DNA from: Naegleria gruberi
Taxonomy: Eukaryota
Reading direction: 5' to 3' (one strand)
Length of the DNA stretch: 11,321 bases
NCBI GenBank assembly: GCA_000004985.1
Contig: GG739012.1
The notes below the pieces were generated by a model, which saw nothing but the letters and a program-made list of their open reading frames with translations, did no database searches and was not told the DNA's origin. The position numbers were made by a program, and so were the translations under genes. Within the stretch, counting starts at the first letter, position 1, and every line of letters starts with the position of its first letter. Below, piece after piece: positions 39-11,291 of this stretch.

Positions 39-83
39 CTATCAGAGAATTTGATTATTAAATGTTTCGAATATATAACATAC
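39..83 (-). other. Spliceosomal intron of 45 nt in the P450 gene (GTATGT...GATAG). A possible 26-nt micro-exon lies at 13-38 and continues the I-helix as TSSTSLTF, followed by a GTGAGA donor at 7-12.
   Basis: The minus strand reads GAG|GTATGTTATATATTCGAAACATTTAATAATCAAATTCTCTGATAG|ACAAGTTCAACTTCCTTAACTTTCAT|GTGAGA. Translating after the AG gives T-S-S-T-S-L-T-F, which completes AGFE-TSSTSL (the AGxETT I-helix signature). Without splicing the frame reaches TGA at 42-44. Confidence 0.55.
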
Positions 84-1097
84 CTCAAACCCAGCAAATA
101 AGACAATAAAAATAGCAGATAACAATTCAGACTTGGACAACTTTTCCTCCTCTTTTGTGGCAGCAGCAGATGATTTTAACAGCAAGGTCAATAAATCCTC
201 ATCATCCTTTTCTAGATAGGTATGATCATCGAATTCTTGTTGTTTCTTTTCAATCATAGAGTAGGTTGCTTGTTTGAATTTTTCCTTAGCATCTTTGTAT
301 CTTTTAAAGAAACCAAATGGGATAATCTCAAATAAATATTTTGGTAGTACGAAATTATAGATCAAACCATTGAGTAAGTTATTGATCCAATCATGAATTC
401 CATCTCTATGGGCAGCATCCTTATCAAAAATTCCAACATCATAATCAAAAGCAACTCTATTAATTACATCTAAAGTTATTGATTTGAGTTCATTACTAAT
501 GTTTACCTTTCTAATTGTACCATCTGATTCTGAGCCATAAATTGATTTCCAAAATTTGATCATCTTTTTGCATTCTTCAAGAGTAACTCTAAAGACGTTC
601 TTCAAGTGAGAAGAACTGCTGAATATTGGATTTGCTAGAGTTCTGTGCTTTCTCCAGATTGGATCATTGGAATCGGCTGAGAAAATATTCGGACCAAATA
701 TTCCAACTGGTTCGAACAAGTTTCCCTTTGAGACAGTCTTGTACTTTTTTACAAGGATTTCTCTAATCAAATTCTCATCATTTGAAATGTGAATTTGGCT
801 GAAAGTTCCAAGTTGAATTTTAACAACTTTAGCATTTGGATTATTCTTGAATGAATTTAGGGCACAATCATAAAGGTGATGAACATAAATCTTCCTATGA
901 ATCATACTATCAATCAGAGGAGGAAAAAAACTGACATATCCTGGTAAATGTTTAAATTTAAAGTAAATTGTAAAGAATGTAATTGTGTAGCGGATCAACA
1001 AATACGAAACAAGACAAACTATCAATAAAAATACATTGAAAAAAGACAGTGTAAACAATTGGTTGAATGAACCAATCAACCCGATCTCTTCTGTCAT
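84..1097 (-). CDS. Cytochrome P450, N-terminal about 338 aa, from the membrane anchor to the I-helix. The exon ends at a GAG|GTATGT donor.
   Basis: The minus-strand ORF begins MTEEIGLIGS... and has two hydrophobic N-terminal segments (LLIVCLVSYLLI, ITFFTIYF). A proline hinge FFPPLIDSM follows, then a P450-like GPNIFSADSNDPIWRKHRTLANPIFS segment. The exon ends ...SAIFIVLFAGFE directly at GTATGT, which fits the I-helix AGxE/TT motif being split by an intron. The reading frame is continuous from 1097 to 84. Confidence 0.85.
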
Positions 1098-1197: not shown

Positions 1198-1469
1198 TTA
1201 TTTGTTAGTAATTTGTAAACCACACAAAACATAACATCCTTCAATGAGGTTCATATCTTCATCATACATTTGAACACTTCTTAAAGATCCCTCTCTGAGA
1301 GCAGTAACTGGAATAATGTTTTCACAAACGAATTTGTCAGCTGAGACCTTATTCTTATCCCAAATTGAGATTTGGAGGTTGGCAAGATCAGGTGCAGCAA
1401 CATCAAACTCAAAACTTGTGTTATATGTTGGATTCCAACCATTATCCCAAACAGTAGCTGTACTGAAAG
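1198..1469 (-). CDS. Phosphoinositide-specific phospholipase C (delta-like), C-terminal end of the C2 domain with stop codon. The fragment runs into the 980-N gap upstream.
   Basis: The minus-strand translation is ...FSTATVWDNGWNPTYNTSFEFDVAAPDLANLQISIWDKNKVSADKFVCENIIPVTALREGSLRSVQMYDEDMNLIEGCYVLCGLQITNK*. It aligns with the PLC-delta C2 C-terminus ([31 protein letters not shown]...[22 protein letters not shown]). The stop TAA is at 1198-1200 on the minus strand. Confidence 0.8.
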
Positions 1470-3817: not shown

Positions 3818-3863
3818 GTAAGATTGCTTCCGAACAAGTTTTGTATTGAGTGATTGGTTTTAG

Positions 3864-4136
3864 GTACTAGTCCGTATGATTATTTGCCAAATTATGAAAG
3901 ATTCATGTCGTATTCTGGTCCTTTTCATTTAAAATTTGTTGATGCTAGATTGACTGAATCGACTGTAGAACTTGCTGAACATTCTGATTTTGTATCTGTG
4001 TTTGTGAATGATTGTTTGAATAGAAATGTATTACAGACATTGAGTCACAAGTATGGAATTAAATGTGTTGCCCTGAGAAGTGCTGGATTTAACAATGTTG
4101 ATTTGTCAGCAGCAAGTGAATTTGGAGTGAAAGTTT
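3864..4136 (+). CDS. ldhA-like: D-lactate dehydrogenase exon 2, covering the N-terminal substrate-binding domain. It runs into a 50-N gap.
   Basis: The translation is (G)[90 protein letters not shown]. It aligns nearly residue-for-residue with E. coli LdhA, from STKQYDKKYLQQVNESFGFELEFFDFLLTEKTAKTANGCEAVCIFVNDDGSRPVLEEL to [27 protein letters not shown]. Confidence 0.85.
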
Positions 4137-4186
4137 NNNNNNNNNNNNNNNNNNNNNNNNNNNNNNNNNNNNNNNNNNNNNNNNNN
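4137..4186. other. 50-N gap of unknown true size. It hides the NAD-binding and catalytic core of the D-lactate dehydrogenase, about 200 codons.
   Basis: The sequence before the gap ends at LdhA residue about 95. The sequence after it resumes at about residue 290. Confidence 0.9.
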
Positions 4187-4574: not shown

Positions 4575-4599
4575 TTATTTACACTAATTTACAAATCAG
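4575..4599. repeat. Copy B of the same 25-nt motif. It overlaps the stop codon and 3' end of the second P450 gene.
   Basis: See copy A. Both copies sit in the 240-bp convergent 3' intergenic region between the D-LDH and P450 genes. Confidence 0.5.
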
Positions 4600-5020
4600 A
4601 TCTTGGTTTGAGCATGATGTGCATATTATCTGGTCTTACTGTGACACCAGGTACTTCAACCACTCTTTCCTTTGGATTGGTTTCATCATTGGTCAATTCC
4701 AATTCATAGAATTGGAGCAATCTTACAAGCATGACAAATGCTTCGATTTGAGCAAACTTGAATCCAATACACTTTCTATTACCCATAGAGAATGGAATCC
4801 AGGTAAAATTGTGTTGAATTCTCAATTGTTCTTCAGCATCCATTGGATATCTTTCAGGAATGAATTCTAATGGTTTCTCCCAATTCTTTTCACTTCTATT
4901 GGCAGCAAAAATGTTAATGTGAATGGTAGTATCCTTTGGAATGGAAAATTCACCCAAGGTAGTACTCTTCTTAGCAACTCTAAAAACATTGACAACTGGT
5001 GGATGCAAACGAAGAGCTCC
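4589..5020 (-). CDS. Cytochrome P450 number 2, C-terminal exon carrying the K-helix ExxR region, the PERF-like motif and the heme-binding cysteine loop. It continues into the 3959-N gap.
   Basis: The minus-strand translation is GALRLHPPVVNVFRVAKKSTTLGEFSIPKDTTIHINIFAANRSEKNWEKPLEFIPERYPMDAEEQLRIQHNFTWIPFSMGNRKCIGFKFAQIEAFVMLVRLLQFYELELTNDETNPKERVVEVPGVTVRPDNMHIMLKPRSDL*. FSMGNRKCIG is the FxxGxRxCxG heme ligand signature, PERY is a PERF variant, and LRLHPP is the conserved post-ExxR segment. The stop TAA is at 4589-4591 on the minus strand. Confidence 0.9.
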   Translation of the reverse strand, partial: GALRLHPPVVNVFRVAKKSTTLGEFSIPKDTTIHINIFAANRSEKNWEKPLEFIPERYPMDAEEQLRIQHNFTWIPFSMGNRKCIGFKFAQIEAFVMLVRLLQFYELELTNDETNPKERVVEVPGVTVRPDNMHIMLKPRSDL

Positions 5021-8000
5021 NNNNNNNNNNNNNNNNNNNNNNNNNNNNNNNNNNNNNNNNNNNNNNNNNNNNNNNNNNNNNNNNNNNNNNNNNNNNNNNN
5101 NNNNNNNNNNNNNNNNNNNNNNNNNNNNNNNNNNNNNNNNNNNNNNNNNNNNNNNNNNNNNNNNNNNNNNNNNNNNNNNNNNNNNNNNNNNNNNNNNNNN
5201 NNNNNNNNNNNNNNNNNNNNNNNNNNNNNNNNNNNNNNNNNNNNNNNNNNNNNNNNNNNNNNNNNNNNNNNNNNNNNNNNNNNNNNNNNNNNNNNNNNNN
5301 NNNNNNNNNNNNNNNNNNNNNNNNNNNNNNNNNNNNNNNNNNNNNNNNNNNNNNNNNNNNNNNNNNNNNNNNNNNNNNNNNNNNNNNNNNNNNNNNNNNN
5401 NNNNNNNNNNNNNNNNNNNNNNNNNNNNNNNNNNNNNNNNNNNNNNNNNNNNNNNNNNNNNNNNNNNNNNNNNNNNNNNNNNNNNNNNNNNNNNNNNNNN
5501 NNNNNNNNNNNNNNNNNNNNNNNNNNNNNNNNNNNNNNNNNNNNNNNNNNNNNNNNNNNNNNNNNNNNNNNNNNNNNNNNNNNNNNNNNNNNNNNNNNNN
5601 NNNNNNNNNNNNNNNNNNNNNNNNNNNNNNNNNNNNNNNNNNNNNNNNNNNNNNNNNNNNNNNNNNNNNNNNNNNNNNNNNNNNNNNNNNNNNNNNNNNN
5701 NNNNNNNNNNNNNNNNNNNNNNNNNNNNNNNNNNNNNNNNNNNNNNNNNNNNNNNNNNNNNNNNNNNNNNNNNNNNNNNNNNNNNNNNNNNNNNNNNNNN
5801 NNNNNNNNNNNNNNNNNNNNNNNNNNNNNNNNNNNNNNNNNNNNNNNNNNNNNNNNNNNNNNNNNNNNNNNNNNNNNNNNNNNNNNNNNNNNNNNNNNNN
5901 NNNNNNNNNNNNNNNNNNNNNNNNNNNNNNNNNNNNNNNNNNNNNNNNNNNNNNNNNNNNNNNNNNNNNNNNNNNNNNNNNNNNNNNNNNNNNNNNNNNN
6001 NNNNNNNNNNNNNNNNNNNNNNNNNNNNNNNNNNNNNNNNNNNNNNNNNNNNNNNNNNNNNNNNNNNNNNNNNNNNNNNNNNNNNNNNNNNNNNNNNNNN
6101 NNNNNNNNNNNNNNNNNNNNNNNNNNNNNNNNNNNNNNNNNNNNNNNNNNNNNNNNNNNNNNNNNNNNNNNNNNNNNNNNNNNNNNNNNNNNNNNNNNNN
6201 NNNNNNNNNNNNNNNNNNNNNNNNNNNNNNNNNNNNNNNNNNNNNNNNNNNNNNNNNNNNNNNNNNNNNNNNNNNNNNNNNNNNNNNNNNNNNNNNNNNN
6301 NNNNNNNNNNNNNNNNNNNNNNNNNNNNNNNNNNNNNNNNNNNNNNNNNNNNNNNNNNNNNNNNNNNNNNNNNNNNNNNNNNNNNNNNNNNNNNNNNNNN
6401 NNNNNNNNNNNNNNNNNNNNNNNNNNNNNNNNNNNNNNNNNNNNNNNNNNNNNNNNNNNNNNNNNNNNNNNNNNNNNNNNNNNNNNNNNNNNNNNNNNNN
6501 NNNNNNNNNNNNNNNNNNNNNNNNNNNNNNNNNNNNNNNNNNNNNNNNNNNNNNNNNNNNNNNNNNNNNNNNNNNNNNNNNNNNNNNNNNNNNNNNNNNN
6601 NNNNNNNNNNNNNNNNNNNNNNNNNNNNNNNNNNNNNNNNNNNNNNNNNNNNNNNNNNNNNNNNNNNNNNNNNNNNNNNNNNNNNNNNNNNNNNNNNNNN
6701 NNNNNNNNNNNNNNNNNNNNNNNNNNNNNNNNNNNNNNNNNNNNNNNNNNNNNNNNNNNNNNNNNNNNNNNNNNNNNNNNNNNNNNNNNNNNNNNNNNNN
6801 NNNNNNNNNNNNNNNNNNNNNNNNNNNNNNNNNNNNNNNNNNNNNNNNNNNNNNNNNNNNNNNNNNNNNNNNNNNNNNNNNNNNNNNNNNNNNNNNNNNN
6901 NNNNNNNNNNNNNNNNNNNNNNNNNNNNNNNNNNNNNNNNNNNNNNNNNNNNNNNNNNNNNNNNNNNNNNNNNNNNNNNNNNNNNNNNNNNNNNNNNNNN
7001 NNNNNNNNNNNNNNNNNNNNNNNNNNNNNNNNNNNNNNNNNNNNNNNNNNNNNNNNNNNNNNNNNNNNNNNNNNNNNNNNNNNNNNNNNNNNNNNNNNNN
7101 NNNNNNNNNNNNNNNNNNNNNNNNNNNNNNNNNNNNNNNNNNNNNNNNNNNNNNNNNNNNNNNNNNNNNNNNNNNNNNNNNNNNNNNNNNNNNNNNNNNN
7201 NNNNNNNNNNNNNNNNNNNNNNNNNNNNNNNNNNNNNNNNNNNNNNNNNNNNNNNNNNNNNNNNNNNNNNNNNNNNNNNNNNNNNNNNNNNNNNNNNNNN
7301 NNNNNNNNNNNNNNNNNNNNNNNNNNNNNNNNNNNNNNNNNNNNNNNNNNNNNNNNNNNNNNNNNNNNNNNNNNNNNNNNNNNNNNNNNNNNNNNNNNNN
7401 NNNNNNNNNNNNNNNNNNNNNNNNNNNNNNNNNNNNNNNNNNNNNNNNNNNNNNNNNNNNNNNNNNNNNNNNNNNNNNNNNNNNNNNNNNNNNNNNNNNN
7501 NNNNNNNNNNNNNNNNNNNNNNNNNNNNNNNNNNNNNNNNNNNNNNNNNNNNNNNNNNNNNNNNNNNNNNNNNNNNNNNNNNNNNNNNNNNNNNNNNNNN
7601 NNNNNNNNNNNNNNNNNNNNNNNNNNNNNNNNNNNNNNNNNNNNNNNNNNNNNNNNNNNNNNNNNNNNNNNNNNNNNNNNNNNNNNNNNNNNNNNNNNNN
7701 NNNNNNNNNNNNNNNNNNNNNNNNNNNNNNNNNNNNNNNNNNNNNNNNNNNNNNNNNNNNNNNNNNNNNNNNNNNNNNNNNNNNNNNNNNNNNNNNNNNN
7801 NNNNNNNNNNNNNNNNNNNNNNNNNNNNNNNNNNNNNNNNNNNNNNNNNNNNNNNNNNNNNNNNNNNNNNNNNNNNNNNNNNNNNNNNNNNNNNNNNNNN
7901 NNNNNNNNNNNNNNNNNNNNNNNNNNNNNNNNNNNNNNNNNNNNNNNNNNNNNNNNNNNNNNNNNNNNNNNNNNNNNNNNNNNNNNNNNNNNNNNNNNNN

Positions 8001-8979
8001 NNNNNNNNNNNNNNNNNNNNNNNNNNNNNNNNNNNNNNNNNNNNNNNNNNNNNNNNNNNNNNNNNNNNNNNNNNNNNNNNNNNNNNNNNNNNNNNNNNNN
8101 NNNNNNNNNNNNNNNNNNNNNNNNNNNNNNNNNNNNNNNNNNNNNNNNNNNNNNNNNNNNNNNNNNNNNNNNNNNNNNNNNNNNNNNNNNNNNNNNNNNN
8201 NNNNNNNNNNNNNNNNNNNNNNNNNNNNNNNNNNNNNNNNNNNNNNNNNNNNNNNNNNNNNNNNNNNNNNNNNNNNNNNNNNNNNNNNNNNNNNNNNNNN
8301 NNNNNNNNNNNNNNNNNNNNNNNNNNNNNNNNNNNNNNNNNNNNNNNNNNNNNNNNNNNNNNNNNNNNNNNNNNNNNNNNNNNNNNNNNNNNNNNNNNNN
8401 NNNNNNNNNNNNNNNNNNNNNNNNNNNNNNNNNNNNNNNNNNNNNNNNNNNNNNNNNNNNNNNNNNNNNNNNNNNNNNNNNNNNNNNNNNNNNNNNNNNN
8501 NNNNNNNNNNNNNNNNNNNNNNNNNNNNNNNNNNNNNNNNNNNNNNNNNNNNNNNNNNNNNNNNNNNNNNNNNNNNNNNNNNNNNNNNNNNNNNNNNNNN
8601 NNNNNNNNNNNNNNNNNNNNNNNNNNNNNNNNNNNNNNNNNNNNNNNNNNNNNNNNNNNNNNNNNNNNNNNNNNNNNNNNNNNNNNNNNNNNNNNNNNNN
8701 NNNNNNNNNNNNNNNNNNNNNNNNNNNNNNNNNNNNNNNNNNNNNNNNNNNNNNNNNNNNNNNNNNNNNNNNNNNNNNNNNNNNNNNNNNNNNNNNNNNN
8801 NNNNNNNNNNNNNNNNNNNNNNNNNNNNNNNNNNNNNNNNNNNNNNNNNNNNNNNNNNNNNNNNNNNNNNNNNNNNNNNNNNNNNNNNNNNNNNNNNNNN
8901 NNNNNNNNNNNNNNNNNNNNNNNNNNNNNNNNNNNNNNNNNNNNNNNNNNNNNNNNNNNNNNNNNNNNNNNNNNNNNNN
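5021..8979. other. Assembly gap of 3959 N. It contains the 5' portion of P450 number 2 (minus strand) and almost all of a vWA-domain protein gene (plus strand).
   Basis: It is an unbroken run of n. Coding sequence abuts both edges. Confidence 0.95.
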
Positions 8980-9446
8980 ATGCTGATCATTTCTATCAAT
9001 ATCTTGCTGATGAAACTGGTGGTAAGAGATTTGAACTAAAGGATATGGACTCTATGCAATCAATGTTCTTAGGTTTGTGTTATAGAGAAGCAGGTGAATT
9101 CCAAATGGTCAATCCAGACATGCAACAACATTTACAATCTTCTGATTCAGCAATTGTCAGACCTGAAGGCGAAGAATTGACAGATGAGGAATTGAAAACT
9201 ATTCACGAAGCTATCCACAACTCAACAATTTCATCAGTCACAATTAAGGGTTCTGAATATGAAATTACAACTAATGATGGTGCCTGTAGATTTGTTCGTA
9301 TTGGAGAAATTGTTTATATCGAACAAAACAAGGACAAAAAGACAAAATATGCCAAAATGGCTCTCGAAGGAAGAAAGATTACTTGGATAACACACAAAGG
9401 AAAGTGGGGCTTAATCGTTGATGACGAAATAAAGAGATCAATGTAA
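8980..9446 (+). CDS. C-terminal about 155 codons of a von Willebrand factor A (vWA) domain protein. The end of the vWA fold is followed by an uncharacterised tail of about 110 aa. The stop is TAA at 9444-9446.
   Basis: The translation is ADHFYQYLADETGGKRFELKDMDSMQSMFLGLCYREAGEFQ... and the tail ends ...KITWITHKGKWGLIVDDEIKRSM*. LADETGGKRFELKDMDSMQSMF follows the characteristic final strand and helix of vWA domains (L..LA..TGG.YF...D...L...F). I do not recognise the tail beyond that. Confidence 0.6.
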
Positions 9447-9538
9447 AGTATTTGTAATGTAATTTCTGATCAATCAGCAAATCATTCGTTTCCACTGGAG
9501 CAGATTATTGGGAATAACTTTTTGAATGTGACATAACT

Positions 9539-9800
9539 CTGAGGCTTCTAAAAAAAGGAAATTGAATAATAAAAAAATAAAAACACAATGTTCAAGTAAG
9601 ATATCTAAACTATCGACAGTATGAACTAAAAATAATGAAAAACCTCATAAAAAATGAGGTCAAAGCTGAGGATTCTAAATAAGGATATACAAATAGGTTT
9701 TAAAAAATAACAAAACAATTACCAAGATAGATATCCAAACAATCACTACAAGAAAATAAATTGTGTGAAAATTCAAGATCATAGAAAATTTCATAAAATG
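9539..9800. repeat. Diverged tandem duplication with two units of about 127 and 135 nt: U1 at 9539-9665 and U2 at 9666-9800. U1 contains a 7-bp hairpin (ACCTCAT-AAAAA-ATGAGGT) at 9642-9660.
   Basis: Both units start with CTGAGG(C/A)TTCTAAA.AAGGA. They share colinear blocks (AAAAAATAA..ACAAT; AAGATATCTAAACTATC vs AGATAGATATCCAAACAATC) and end CTCATAAAAAATG vs TTCATAAAATG. I estimate about 60-65% identity by eye. Confidence 0.55.
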
Positions 9801-9804
9801 TTAT

Positions 9805-9880
9805 CTCGAGTGCCGGGAATTGAACCCGGGTCGCCAGAGTGACAGTCACAGAACCACGTTTAGAGCCTTAATACCTTAGT
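9805..9880 (-). ncRNA. tRNA-like, Pol III-type element on the minus strand. It may be a tRNA-derived SINE head, a tRNA pseudogene or a small RNA gene. It has a canonical T-arm and B-box but an incomplete cloverleaf.
   Basis: The minus strand reads ...GGCTCTAAACGTGGTTCTGTGACTGTCACTCTGGCGAC-CCGGG-TTCAATT-CCCGG-CACTCGAG. CCGGG/TTCAATT/CCCGG is a perfect 5-bp T-stem with a GTTCAATTC T-loop, which is also the Pol III B-box GGTTCRANNCC. GTGACTGTCAC is a small variable-arm-like hairpin. A T4 run follows about 10 nt beyond the 3' end. No 5' segment complementary to the 3' acceptor strand CACTCGA lies within 90 nt upstream. Confidence 0.4.
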
Positions 9881-10385
9881 ACCATTTTTAGAAAGTAAAT
9901 TTGTTTTATTAATTCACTCTTCATTCATTGCTTCAAATTTGTTTCAACAGGTTCCTCAATACAATTAATGAAATCTCTCTTGTACATCATTTCTAATAGT
10001 TGTTGATTTTTAAACAGTTTTGTAAGCAAAGCATGAATCTAAGGTGATAATCTTTTGTATTCGGCAAAATAAATCTCGAGATGAGCGTTAAGAGGACAAT
10101 ATATTTGTTAGTGATTGAATATAAGTTTCCATCCAAATCACCAAAAAAAACTTACAGAACTTGTACAATTAATAAGTAACCTTAAAAAAAATGAGATTCG
10201 TCAGAGAGCGTCTTGAAGTGGTTATGTTATATTCCTCGAACTGGGGAGGAGGTTTGTGAGAATACTTCTTCCCAGAGTACTCCTGGTAAGGAACATTATC
10301 CACCAAATGCCTGCTTCAATGTCTTTTGGTATAAACAGCCGACGATTCAACACGGCGAAAATATTATCTGAATTTTCAACAGTAA

Positions 10386-11291
10386 AATTTCCTCATTCCA
10401 CGCAAGTACACTGTAGAATATTTTGATAATCTCAAAGCATTAGAAAGTGCTTCGGAAGGTGCTAGTGCTGTTGTTAGATTATTCTCCATGAAGAAACTTG
10501 GTGAGATCACTAAAACGGCTTCAGGATCAGGATTTTACATTCTTCCCAACACAATTATTACAAACAGCCACGTTGCTAATGAGATTGAATCCATTGGTAA
10601 GGTAAATGCGTACAACAACTCATGGAACATTAACAGTACAATCTCAGGAATGCCAAAAAAGTTAGAAACTTTGTTTTCAGGAAAAGCAATCAAATATTTC
10701 CAAATGGAAAAATCGTTTCCAGTTACCCAAAATTGGGTTGGCAGAGATCCAATTACTACCACTGTAGGAAACTTTGATTTCTTTGATATTACAGCAATGA
10801 ATTTCTCTGGTTCTCCAAATAAGGTGTTTTTCATACCCTCACCACGAATTTTGCAACCAAATGACGAAATTATTACCCTTTCGTATCCAGGAGACGAGAA
10901 TAAACCTCCTTTCTCTAGCAGTCAGAATTATGTAGACTGGGCTCCAAGTGAATCCTTCTTGAAGGACAATATCTTCAATGGTTATGGAACATTGTGTGCA
11001 AGTGTTGGAAAGATACTTCACCCCTATGATTTCACTCAAAATGGACTTGTAGAAAAAGTTGAAGACTTTTGTTACGATAAGTCCAACCAAGAGTGTTTAG
11101 CCAGTTCTGAAAGTTTAATTTTTGGAAGTTCTGGTGGTGTTATGATTTCTAAATTCTCCAAAGTGTATCACATTAAAGGATACACACTGATTGAGTTTCA
11201 CGCAGTCCATACTGGTGGAGAGTTTGTAAGATGTTCAACTTGTTTGAAACATTTTGGCTCAGCTATGGACAAAGCNTGGTTCACAGCATGA
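10386..11291 (+). CDS. Trypsin-like serine protease of the Trypsin_2 / HtrA-DegP-like chymotrypsin fold. This is the exon carrying the catalytic His, Asp and Ser. The true 5' end lies upstream and is unresolved, because the frame is open back to 10386 and the annotated Met at 10488 is internal.
   Basis: The translation ...YFDNLKALESASEGASAVVRLFSMKKLGEITKTASGSGFYILPNTIITNSHVANE matches the HtrA pattern (VVSI...GSGVII..GYVVTNNHVV). The downstream GSSGGVMI is the GxSGG catalytic serine motif. The catalytic His falls about 28 aa after the first Met, which is too close to be a real N-terminus. The ORF ends at TGA 11289-11291, but the ambiguous base at 11276 may hide a frameshift. Confidence 0.75.
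   Translation, partial: NFLIPRKYTVEYFDNLKALESASEGASAVVRLFSMKKLGEITKTASGSGFYILPNTIITNSHVANEIESIGKVNAYNNSWNINSTISGMPKKLETLFSGKAIKYFQMEKSFPVTQNWVGRDPITTTVGNFDFFDITAMNFSGSPNKVFFIPSPRILQPNDEIITLSYPGDENKPPFSSSQNYVDWAPSESFLKDNIFNGYGTLCASVGKILHPYDFTQNGLVEKVEDFCYDKSNQECLASSESLIFGSSGGVMISKFSKVYHIKGYTLIEFHAVHTGGEFVRCSTCLKHFGSAMDKXWFTA

Follow-up and report, generated by a model that had tools for sequence, protein, structure and literature searches.

A 5′-truncated tRNA-Asp(GUC) gene fragment in a Naegleria gruberi intergenic spacer, probably the relic of a nuclear tRNA gene

What does a perfect but solitary tRNA T-arm represent when it stands in the AT-rich genome of a protist, with no visible 5′ acceptor partner and with two tandem repeats on its 3′ side? 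We addressed this question for a locus of Naegleria gruberi, using as the window of analysis a complete scaffold of 11,321 bp, of which ∼44% consists of N (in runs at 1470-2449, 4137-4186, and 5021-8979). The tRNA piece and the duplication lie together in an intergenic spacer of 744 nt (9447-10190), which was delimited by tblastn of P0001, P0003, and P0004 and is flanked by two plus-strand genes. On one side, the stop of the last exon of NAEGRDRAFT_76520 (9120-9446, plus strand), which shows 100% identity to an N. gruberi predicted protein, borders the spacer; on the other, a gene for a trypsin-like peptidase, recognized by tblastn and a weak Pfam Trypsin_2 match, begins with an ATG at 10191 (plus strand) and has a paralogue with 70% identity on a 708-kb N. 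gruberi scaffold. By tblastn placement of this gene, the tRNA piece lies 343 nt upstream of its start, in divergent orientation. The spacer also contains several further small near-duplications.

A preliminary description of this DNA had proposed either a tRNA-derived SINE, composed of a head, a body, and a repeated tail, or a decayed tRNA gene whose flank had been duplicated, and had drawn the tRNA-related part as far as 9890. The tRNA-related sequence that we find is limited to 43 nt on the minus strand (9847-9805), and we describe below its identity, its missing 5′ part and repeated 3′ flank, and the explanations that may be offered for its origin.

Identity of the tRNA piece and its closest relative

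The piece is a 5′-truncated fragment of a tRNA-Asp(GUC) gene, comprising tRNA positions 30-73, with position 47 absent, which is roughly the back 60% of an aspartate tRNA gene. From 5′ to 3′ on the minus strand, it reads GA, CTGTCAC, TCTGG, CGAC, CCGGG, TTCAATT, CCCGG, CACTCGA, and G. The opening GA represents G30 and A31 and stands directly 5′ of the anticodon loop, C32-C38, with positions counted back from the T-arm. The loop itself, CTGTCAC (9845-9839), carries the anticodon GTC at 9843-9841 and C38 at 9839, an assignment made from the sequence and from a T-arm spacing that is the same as in a full-length relative (L001a, described below) and in our covariance model. It is followed by (i) the 3′ strand of the anticodon stem, TCTGG, which lies between the anticodon loop and the variable region, and by (ii) a variable region of 4 nt, CGAC (9833-9830). 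The T-arm (9829-9813), identified by motif search and by local Rfam T-arm matches, has a 5-bp stem of CCGGG and CCCGG around the loop TTCAATT, just as the preliminary description had read it. Within this T-arm, the B-box GGTTCAATTCC (9826-9816) is the only occurrence of GGTTCRANTCC in the window, where 0.01 would be expected. The fragment closes with the 3′ acceptor strand CACTCGA (positions 66-72, ending in A72) and the discriminator base G73 (together 9812-9805), both assigned from the sequence and by comparison with L001a. U1-A72, G73, C38, and a 4-nt variable region are features of yeast and human tRNA-Asp, and U1-A72 and G73 are present in L001a too. Further, the fragment matches human tRNA-Asp at 26 of 31 nucleotides across positions 32-62, ungapped.

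This register changes the reading of a GTGAC-T-GTCAC mini-hairpin that had been placed where a variable arm would be. The CTGTCAC at 9845-9839 is the anticodon loop, at the canonical distance from the T-arm, and the GTG(A) of the supposed hairpin is unrelated junction sequence that is complementary by chance. The earlier remark that no clean anticodon stem-loop can be drawn is true as far as it goes, since none is drawable, but the sole reason is the loss of that stem's 5′ strand. By eye, we also considered a class-II tRNA (Sec, Leu, or Ser), whose variable arm would be long; the Asp spacing and the covariance model ruled it out.

The covariance model was made from the spliced L001a together with yeast and human tRNA-Asp sequences, under a cloverleaf structure. 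It gave 31.5 bits (E ∼1e-7) at 9864-9805 (minus strand), with the signal coming entirely from positions ∼30-72; five of the seven acceptor pairs are broken in this match, and the D-arm is absent. In the window, Rfam gave no match at the gathering score and ARAGORN called no gene, with introns or without, which bears out the earlier statement that this is not a standard tRNA gene. When Rfam was applied with a permissive E-value to 9400-10520, the sole credible signals were local matches between the T-arm hairpin and the T-arms in the tmRNA and mascRNA models, and the remainder was noise (ROSE_3, a snoRNA, mir-29, nos_TCE, and others).

The isotype-specific 3′ end GGTTCAATTCCCGGCACTCGA was used to scan public collections of viral contigs, bacterial MAGs, and metagenomes. 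The viral contigs scanned gave no match; a match in a bacterial MAG (L002) is not a tRNA and probably arose by chance; and the metagenomes gave one AT-rich eukaryotic contig, L001. On this contig, ARAGORN, run at default thresholds with introns allowed, calls a tRNA-Asp(gtc) that is interrupted at 37/38 by an intron of 12 nt (1313-1231, minus strand); we designate it L001a and, on the strength of this call, take it as a bona fide gene. Over the 43 nt at the 3′ end of spliced L001a, the window sequence 9847-9805 agrees at 42 of 43 positions. The lone mismatch is at position 42, where the window has G and L001a has T, and G42 would fit, we infer, a C28-G42 variant of the A28-T42 pair of L001a. 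Moreover, a chimera of the first 28 nt of L001a and the 43 nt of the window is called by ARAGORN as tRNA-Asp(gtc), whereas the native window gives no call. The covariance model also detected a second orphan tRNA-Asp-like piece on L001, at 810-762 (14.3 bits, E 0.019). The contig additionally carries an ankyrin ORF. The other relative that was found, L003 (1.2 kb), is without a B-box.

The missing 5′ part and the repeated 3′ flank

The window copy lacks tRNA positions 1-29, and with them the D-arm and its A-box as well as the 5′ strands of both the acceptor stem and the anticodon stem. The DNA 5′ of the breakpoint (9918-9848, minus strand) is unrelated to tRNA positions 1-29 in a shuffle-controlled alignment: 85% of shuffles score as high as these 70 nt or higher, and other window segments score equally well. 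In a search of both strands of the whole window for 5′-exon-like sequence, the best local scores were at most 20, against a shuffle mean of 19.3 ± 2.1, and no acceptor-complementary T[CT]G[AG]GTG followed by a D-arm occurs in the window. Motif, local-alignment, and covariance-model searches therefore agree with the preliminary description that a complementary 5′ acceptor strand is missing. A decayed 5′ half was also considered, including a weak A-box look-alike, TGGTACTAAGG (9884-9874, minus strand), which matches at 7 of 11 positions and whose distance to the B-box is 14 nt too great; it was rejected, its alignment being at or below the shuffle level.

By these comparisons, the 5′ part is lost outright rather than decayed. 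Since no 5′ sequence stands upstream of the fragment or elsewhere in the window, the break falls between positions 29 and 30; alternatively, the GA may be part of a CTGTGA/CTGTCA micro-duplication, which can be seen in the sequence, and the breakpoint could then be at 31/32. A cloverleaf is impossible without the 5′ acceptor strand, the D-arm, and a full anticodon stem, and the locus can therefore yield no tRNA product. Productive Pol III transcription without an A-box is likewise unlikely.

On the 3′ side of the fragment, the two head-to-tail units of ∼127 nt that had been described previously are real. The proximal copy A (9800-9666, minus strand; well-aligned core 9744-9666) and the distal copy B (9665-9539, minus strand; well-aligned core 9614-9539) are identical at 92 of 123 aligned positions, or 75%, with z = 7.4 against dinucleotide shuffles, and this alignment is far above those of other window segment pairs; across the two cores, 59 of 80 positions are identical. 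TRF did not detect the duplication. The 127-nt periodicity extends neither into the tRNA piece nor past 9539, so that the array comprises two copies only; no further copy of the units occurs in the window outside its N runs (6.3 kb), nor do they match L001 or L003 significantly. The hairpin with a T-tail that had been noted in the distal unit was located at 9661-9641 (minus strand), where GACCTCAT-TTTTT-ATGAGGTT is followed by a T-run; it is found in copy B only and is degenerate in the aligned copy A. From 9804 to 9539, the minus strand contains 12 runs of at least four T's, the longest being T7. The tandem duplication is a separate, older event in the 3′-flanking spacer DNA.

Origin of the fragment

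The 3′ trailer (9804-9785, minus strand), defined from the sequence and by comparison with L001a, consists of ATAACATTTT and ATGAAATTTT, which form a 10-nt near-duplication. No CCA follows G73, and ATAACATTTT stands in its place. The T-run that had been noticed past the 3′ end is a T4 at 9798-9795 (+7 to +10, 6 nt past the tRNA end), the first such run and a Pol III terminator. ATGAAATTTT is also the trailer directly 3′ of the L001a tRNA; it occurs once in each of the two sequences, both times just after the tRNA. Beyond this 10-nt trailer, the flanks of the window and of L001 are not significantly similar (p = 0.16 downstream and 0.28 upstream). Target-site duplications, which had been proposed as a check on the SINE reading, were looked for at every plausible boundary of the fragment and of the fragment plus repeats, and no flanking direct repeats of at least 6 nt were found. 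Because there is no CCA, a gene-type trailer with its T-run is present, and target-site duplications are lacking, a truncated gene is favored over a retro-copy.

The piece is thus probably the relic of a nuclear N. gruberi tRNA-Asp(GUC) gene that has lost its first ∼29-31 nucleotides. A DNA-level rearrangement, either a deletion or a breakpoint inside the gene, rather than retroposition, would have removed the 5′ end. N. gruberi has 924 tDNAs (PMC2888827), and eukaryotic tDNA loci turn over rapidly and leave pseudogenes and relics behind (PMC2888827, Bermudez-Santana et al. 2010); with so many tDNAs and so fast a turnover, a relic of this kind is to be expected. Of the decayed tRNA gene with a duplicated flank that had been suggested earlier, both the dead gene and the flank duplication stand, but the gene is truncated and otherwise undecayed.

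This last property bears on the age of the event. The fragment shows 0-1 change in 43 nt, and because these 43 nt stand undecayed beside a duplication that has diverged by 25%, the truncation would be recent, or the piece would have been homogenized by gene conversion from intact copies; constraint is a less likely cause. Three observations nevertheless count against the relic of a tRNA-Asp gene: (i) drift would be expected in a relic that had long been dead, and its absence would allow for constraint, such as that on a TFIIIC site; (ii) the intron that is present in the comparator L001a and absent from the window copy could point to an RNA-mediated origin; and (iii) the second orphan tRNA-Asp-like piece on L001 hints at recurrence.

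Constraint of the first kind is the core of an explanation resembling the extra-genic TFIIIC sites termed ETC, in which the relic is kept as a putative TFIIIC-binding boundary or organizer between the two flanking Pol II genes, while Pol III transcribes it scarcely or not at all. A perfect B-box does stand here outside a functional Pol III gene and inside a non-functional relic, departing at one position from the extended Dictyostelium consensus GTCnnnnGTTCRAnYC (PMC3159450); its 43-nt setting is undecayed while the neighboring spacer has diverged; and its position, in a spacer of only 744 nt and 343 nt upstream of a divergent gene start, would suit such a role. Systems of isolated B-boxes exist in Dictyostelium, where an isolated B-box suffices for TFIIIC/TFIIIB assembly, and in yeasts, where ETC/COC sites act as boundaries (PMC3159450). 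However, a B-box of ∼11-16 nt would be enough for this purpose, yet the anticodon loop, the variable region, and the acceptor strand are equally intact, and because these non-B-box parts are as well preserved, a recent origin fits better than B-box-specific selection. We therefore regard maintenance as a TFIIIC site as unlikely, and residual TFIIIC binding at the intact B-box as plausibly the only activity that the relic could keep.

The two orphan tRNA-Asp pieces, one in the window and one on L001, occur within ∼8 kb of related DNA. Such orphan 3′ pieces, with a B-box and a terminator and without an A-box, could conceivably form a recurrent, maintained class of heterolobosean elements, a suggestion drawn from their sequences that we rate as quite improbable. 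If it held, the pieces might be putative TFIIIC landing pads or boundary elements, or members of an undescribed tRNA-Asp-derived repeat family that would add to the unusually high N. gruberi tDNA count; and if they were both recurrent and TFIIIC-bound, they could offer a first handle on ETC-like genome organization in Discoba.

A repeat family of a more familiar kind is invoked when the locus is read as a 5′-truncated tRNA-Asp-derived SINE or dispersed repeat, with the ∼127-nt unit as its body. LINE-mediated copies are frequently 5′ truncated, a tRNA-derived head with a B-box does adjoin a repeated unit here, the tDNA count of N. gruberi is unusually high (924), and a second orphan tRNA-Asp-like piece is present on L001. 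Against this, (i) the transcribed strand of the supposed body contains 12 runs of at least four T's, the first only 6 nt past the tRNA; (ii) there is no A-box, given that TGGTACTAAGG matches at 7/11 and is 14 nt too far away; (iii) target-site duplications are absent, as is an A-rich or simple-repeat tail (TRF); and (iv) downstream of the two tRNA-Asp pieces on L001, nothing matches the ∼127-nt units significantly. In addition, the head is undecayed and the units are 25% apart, and head and units therefore do not share one history. The literature searched gave nothing specific on Naegleria SINEs, tRNA introns, or tRNA-targeting retroelements. The SINE reading of the preliminary description is accordingly not supported, and we hold it to be very unlikely.

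A processed retro-pseudogene, that is, a 5′-truncated retro-copy of a spliced tRNA-Asp transcript, would explain why the window copy lacks the 12-nt intron of L001a, the sole full-length relative found, and abortive reverse transcription typically leaves copies truncated at the 5′ end. This intron evidence comes from one gene on one metagenome contig, however, and the window has no CCA, no target-site duplications, and no A-tail, but does have a gene-type trailer with a T-run and ATGAAATTTT, as in L001a. A retro-copy is, in our estimation, highly improbable.

Least tenable of all, with a negligible probability, is a functional but unconventional tRNA gene, whether interrupted by a long or non-canonical intron, split or permuted in its arrangement, or serving as companion tRNA-like promoter to a small-RNA gene in divergent orientation. 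Naegleria belongs to Discoba, as do the trypanosomatids, in which a companion tRNA or tRNA-like gene serves as promoter for a divergent small-RNA gene ∼100 nt upstream, with both the A-box and the B-box of the companion being needed; here, there is no A-box, no small-RNA family match within 650 nt on the divergent strand, and no Rfam family above noise on either strand of 9400-10520. An intact or intron-containing tRNA, which the preliminary description had allowed for as a possible mis-folding, was rejected: intron-aware ARAGORN finds none at default thresholds, and relaxed ARAGORN yields nothing but a poor Ser(tga) model, interrupted by an intron of 78 nt (9805-9968). This model appears at the 80% threshold only, has two mismatches in its acceptor stem and a D-stem of three base pairs, all wobble, and carries an anticodon that disagrees with the Asp identity evident in the 3′ half. 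Within the window, a split or permuted gene is excluded: nothing like a 5′ half is found on either strand or on either side, and in a permuted gene the T4 right after the 3′ half would stop the precursor.

Comparison with known systems

For a perfect T-arm that stands alone in an AT-rich protist genome, the simplest reading is thus a truncated tDNA. The result is of use mainly for annotation, in that it identifies in N. gruberi a probable relic of a tRNA-Asp gene that had not been annotated, and it marks the locus as a probable rearrangement breakpoint within a tRNA gene.

Cytoplasmic tRNA-Asp(GUC) genes, represented here by L001a and by those of yeast and human, share with the window piece the CUGUCAC anticodon loop, the 4-nt variable region, the UUCAAUU T-loop, A72, G73, and a nearby T-run terminator. 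Unlike these genes, the window piece is without positions 1-29 and so has no acceptor stem, D-arm, or A-box, and the intron of L001a is absent from it.

The window piece belongs with tRNA pseudogenes and relics (PMC2888827) in being what is left of a tRNA gene that no longer functions, within a tDNA-rich genome. Most catalogued tRNA pseudogenes are either full-length copies with point defects or retro-copies, whereas the window piece has a clean 5′ truncation and no point decay, and it is too short for tRNAscan-type detection. With tRNA-derived SINEs it has in common a B-box-bearing, tRNA-related sequence followed by non-tRNA sequence, but it differs from them in having no A-box, T-run terminators across the would-be body, no target-site duplications, and no tail.

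Finally, the ETC sites of yeast, the COC sites of S. pombe, and the ex-B and rDNA B-boxes of Dictyostelium resemble the window piece in presenting a consensus B-box outside a functional tRNA gene; the B-box of the piece stands in an intergenic spacer and could be bound by TFIIIC. While all these other sites generally show no tRNA homology beyond the B-box itself, the N. gruberi piece retains 43 nt of contiguous tRNA sequence.

Short repeats and strand composition of the relic's spacer

The spacer around the relic, a 5'-truncated tRNA-Asp(GUC) gene fragment, contains several short tandem near-duplications on the minus strand. Among these, CTGTGA/CTGTCA (window 9840-9851) lies at the breakpoint and in the anticodon loop; ATAACATTTT/ATGAAATTTT (9785-9804) is in the trailer; and GTACTAAG/GTATTAAG (9867-9882) resides upstream of the relic. 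The occurrence of several such near-duplications in one spacer suggests a slippage-prone region, with which the 127-nt duplication 3' of the relic is consistent. Further, the duplicated spacer (window 9539-9804) displays a strong strand asymmetry, with its minus strand containing 138 T versus 64 A (52% T), and 12 runs of four or more T versus only one run of four or more A.

Neighboring genes of the relic

Adjoining the relic on the plus strand is a partial gene for a trypsin-like peptidase, P0003 (window 10191-11291), whose full-length paralogue, P0004 (427 aa, 70% identical), is encoded on a 708-kb N. gruberi scaffold. The remainder of the window harbors two cytochrome P450 pieces, namely an N-terminal part and a heme-binding C-terminal part, with gaps between, together with a partial D-2-hydroxyacid dehydrogenase gene and an exon with an EF-hand (jointly, window 42-1097, 4589-5008, 3854-4135, and 2458-2847, on the minus, minus, plus, and minus strands, in that order). 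These gene models are fragmentary because N makes up 44% of the scaffold.

Matches to the tRNA in other contigs

The 3' end of the window tRNA matches 24 contiguous, identical nucleotides (GGTTCAATTCCCGGCACTCGAGAT) on the minus strand of a Competibacteraceae MAG contig (JAXMFU010000001.1, 6654-6677), at a site flanked by one AAC(3)-like and one VOC-like ORF. Neither a T-stem nor a tRNA call was found at 6654-6677, and the match is probably due to chance, since a 21-mer is expected to occur ∼0.3 times in 596 Gb.

A second tRNA-Asp-like relic was detected by our tRNA-Asp covariance model (14.3 bits, E 0.019) at 762-810 (minus strand) of Ga0210044_10161042, a metagenome contig of AT-rich eukaryotic DNA (26.6% GC). 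This relic retains (i) an acceptor-like stem with five of seven pairs and (ii) a T-arm with one A·C mismatch, lacks both the D arm and the anticodon arm, and is followed 3' by a T6 run. RCC1-repeat-like exons directly precede it on the same strand. It lies ∼420 nt downstream of, and shares its strand with, an intact, bona fide tRNA-Asp(GTC) gene (1231-1313, minus strand), which is interrupted at position 37/38 by a 12-nt intron; eukaryotic tRNA-Asp genes are seldom known to carry introns.
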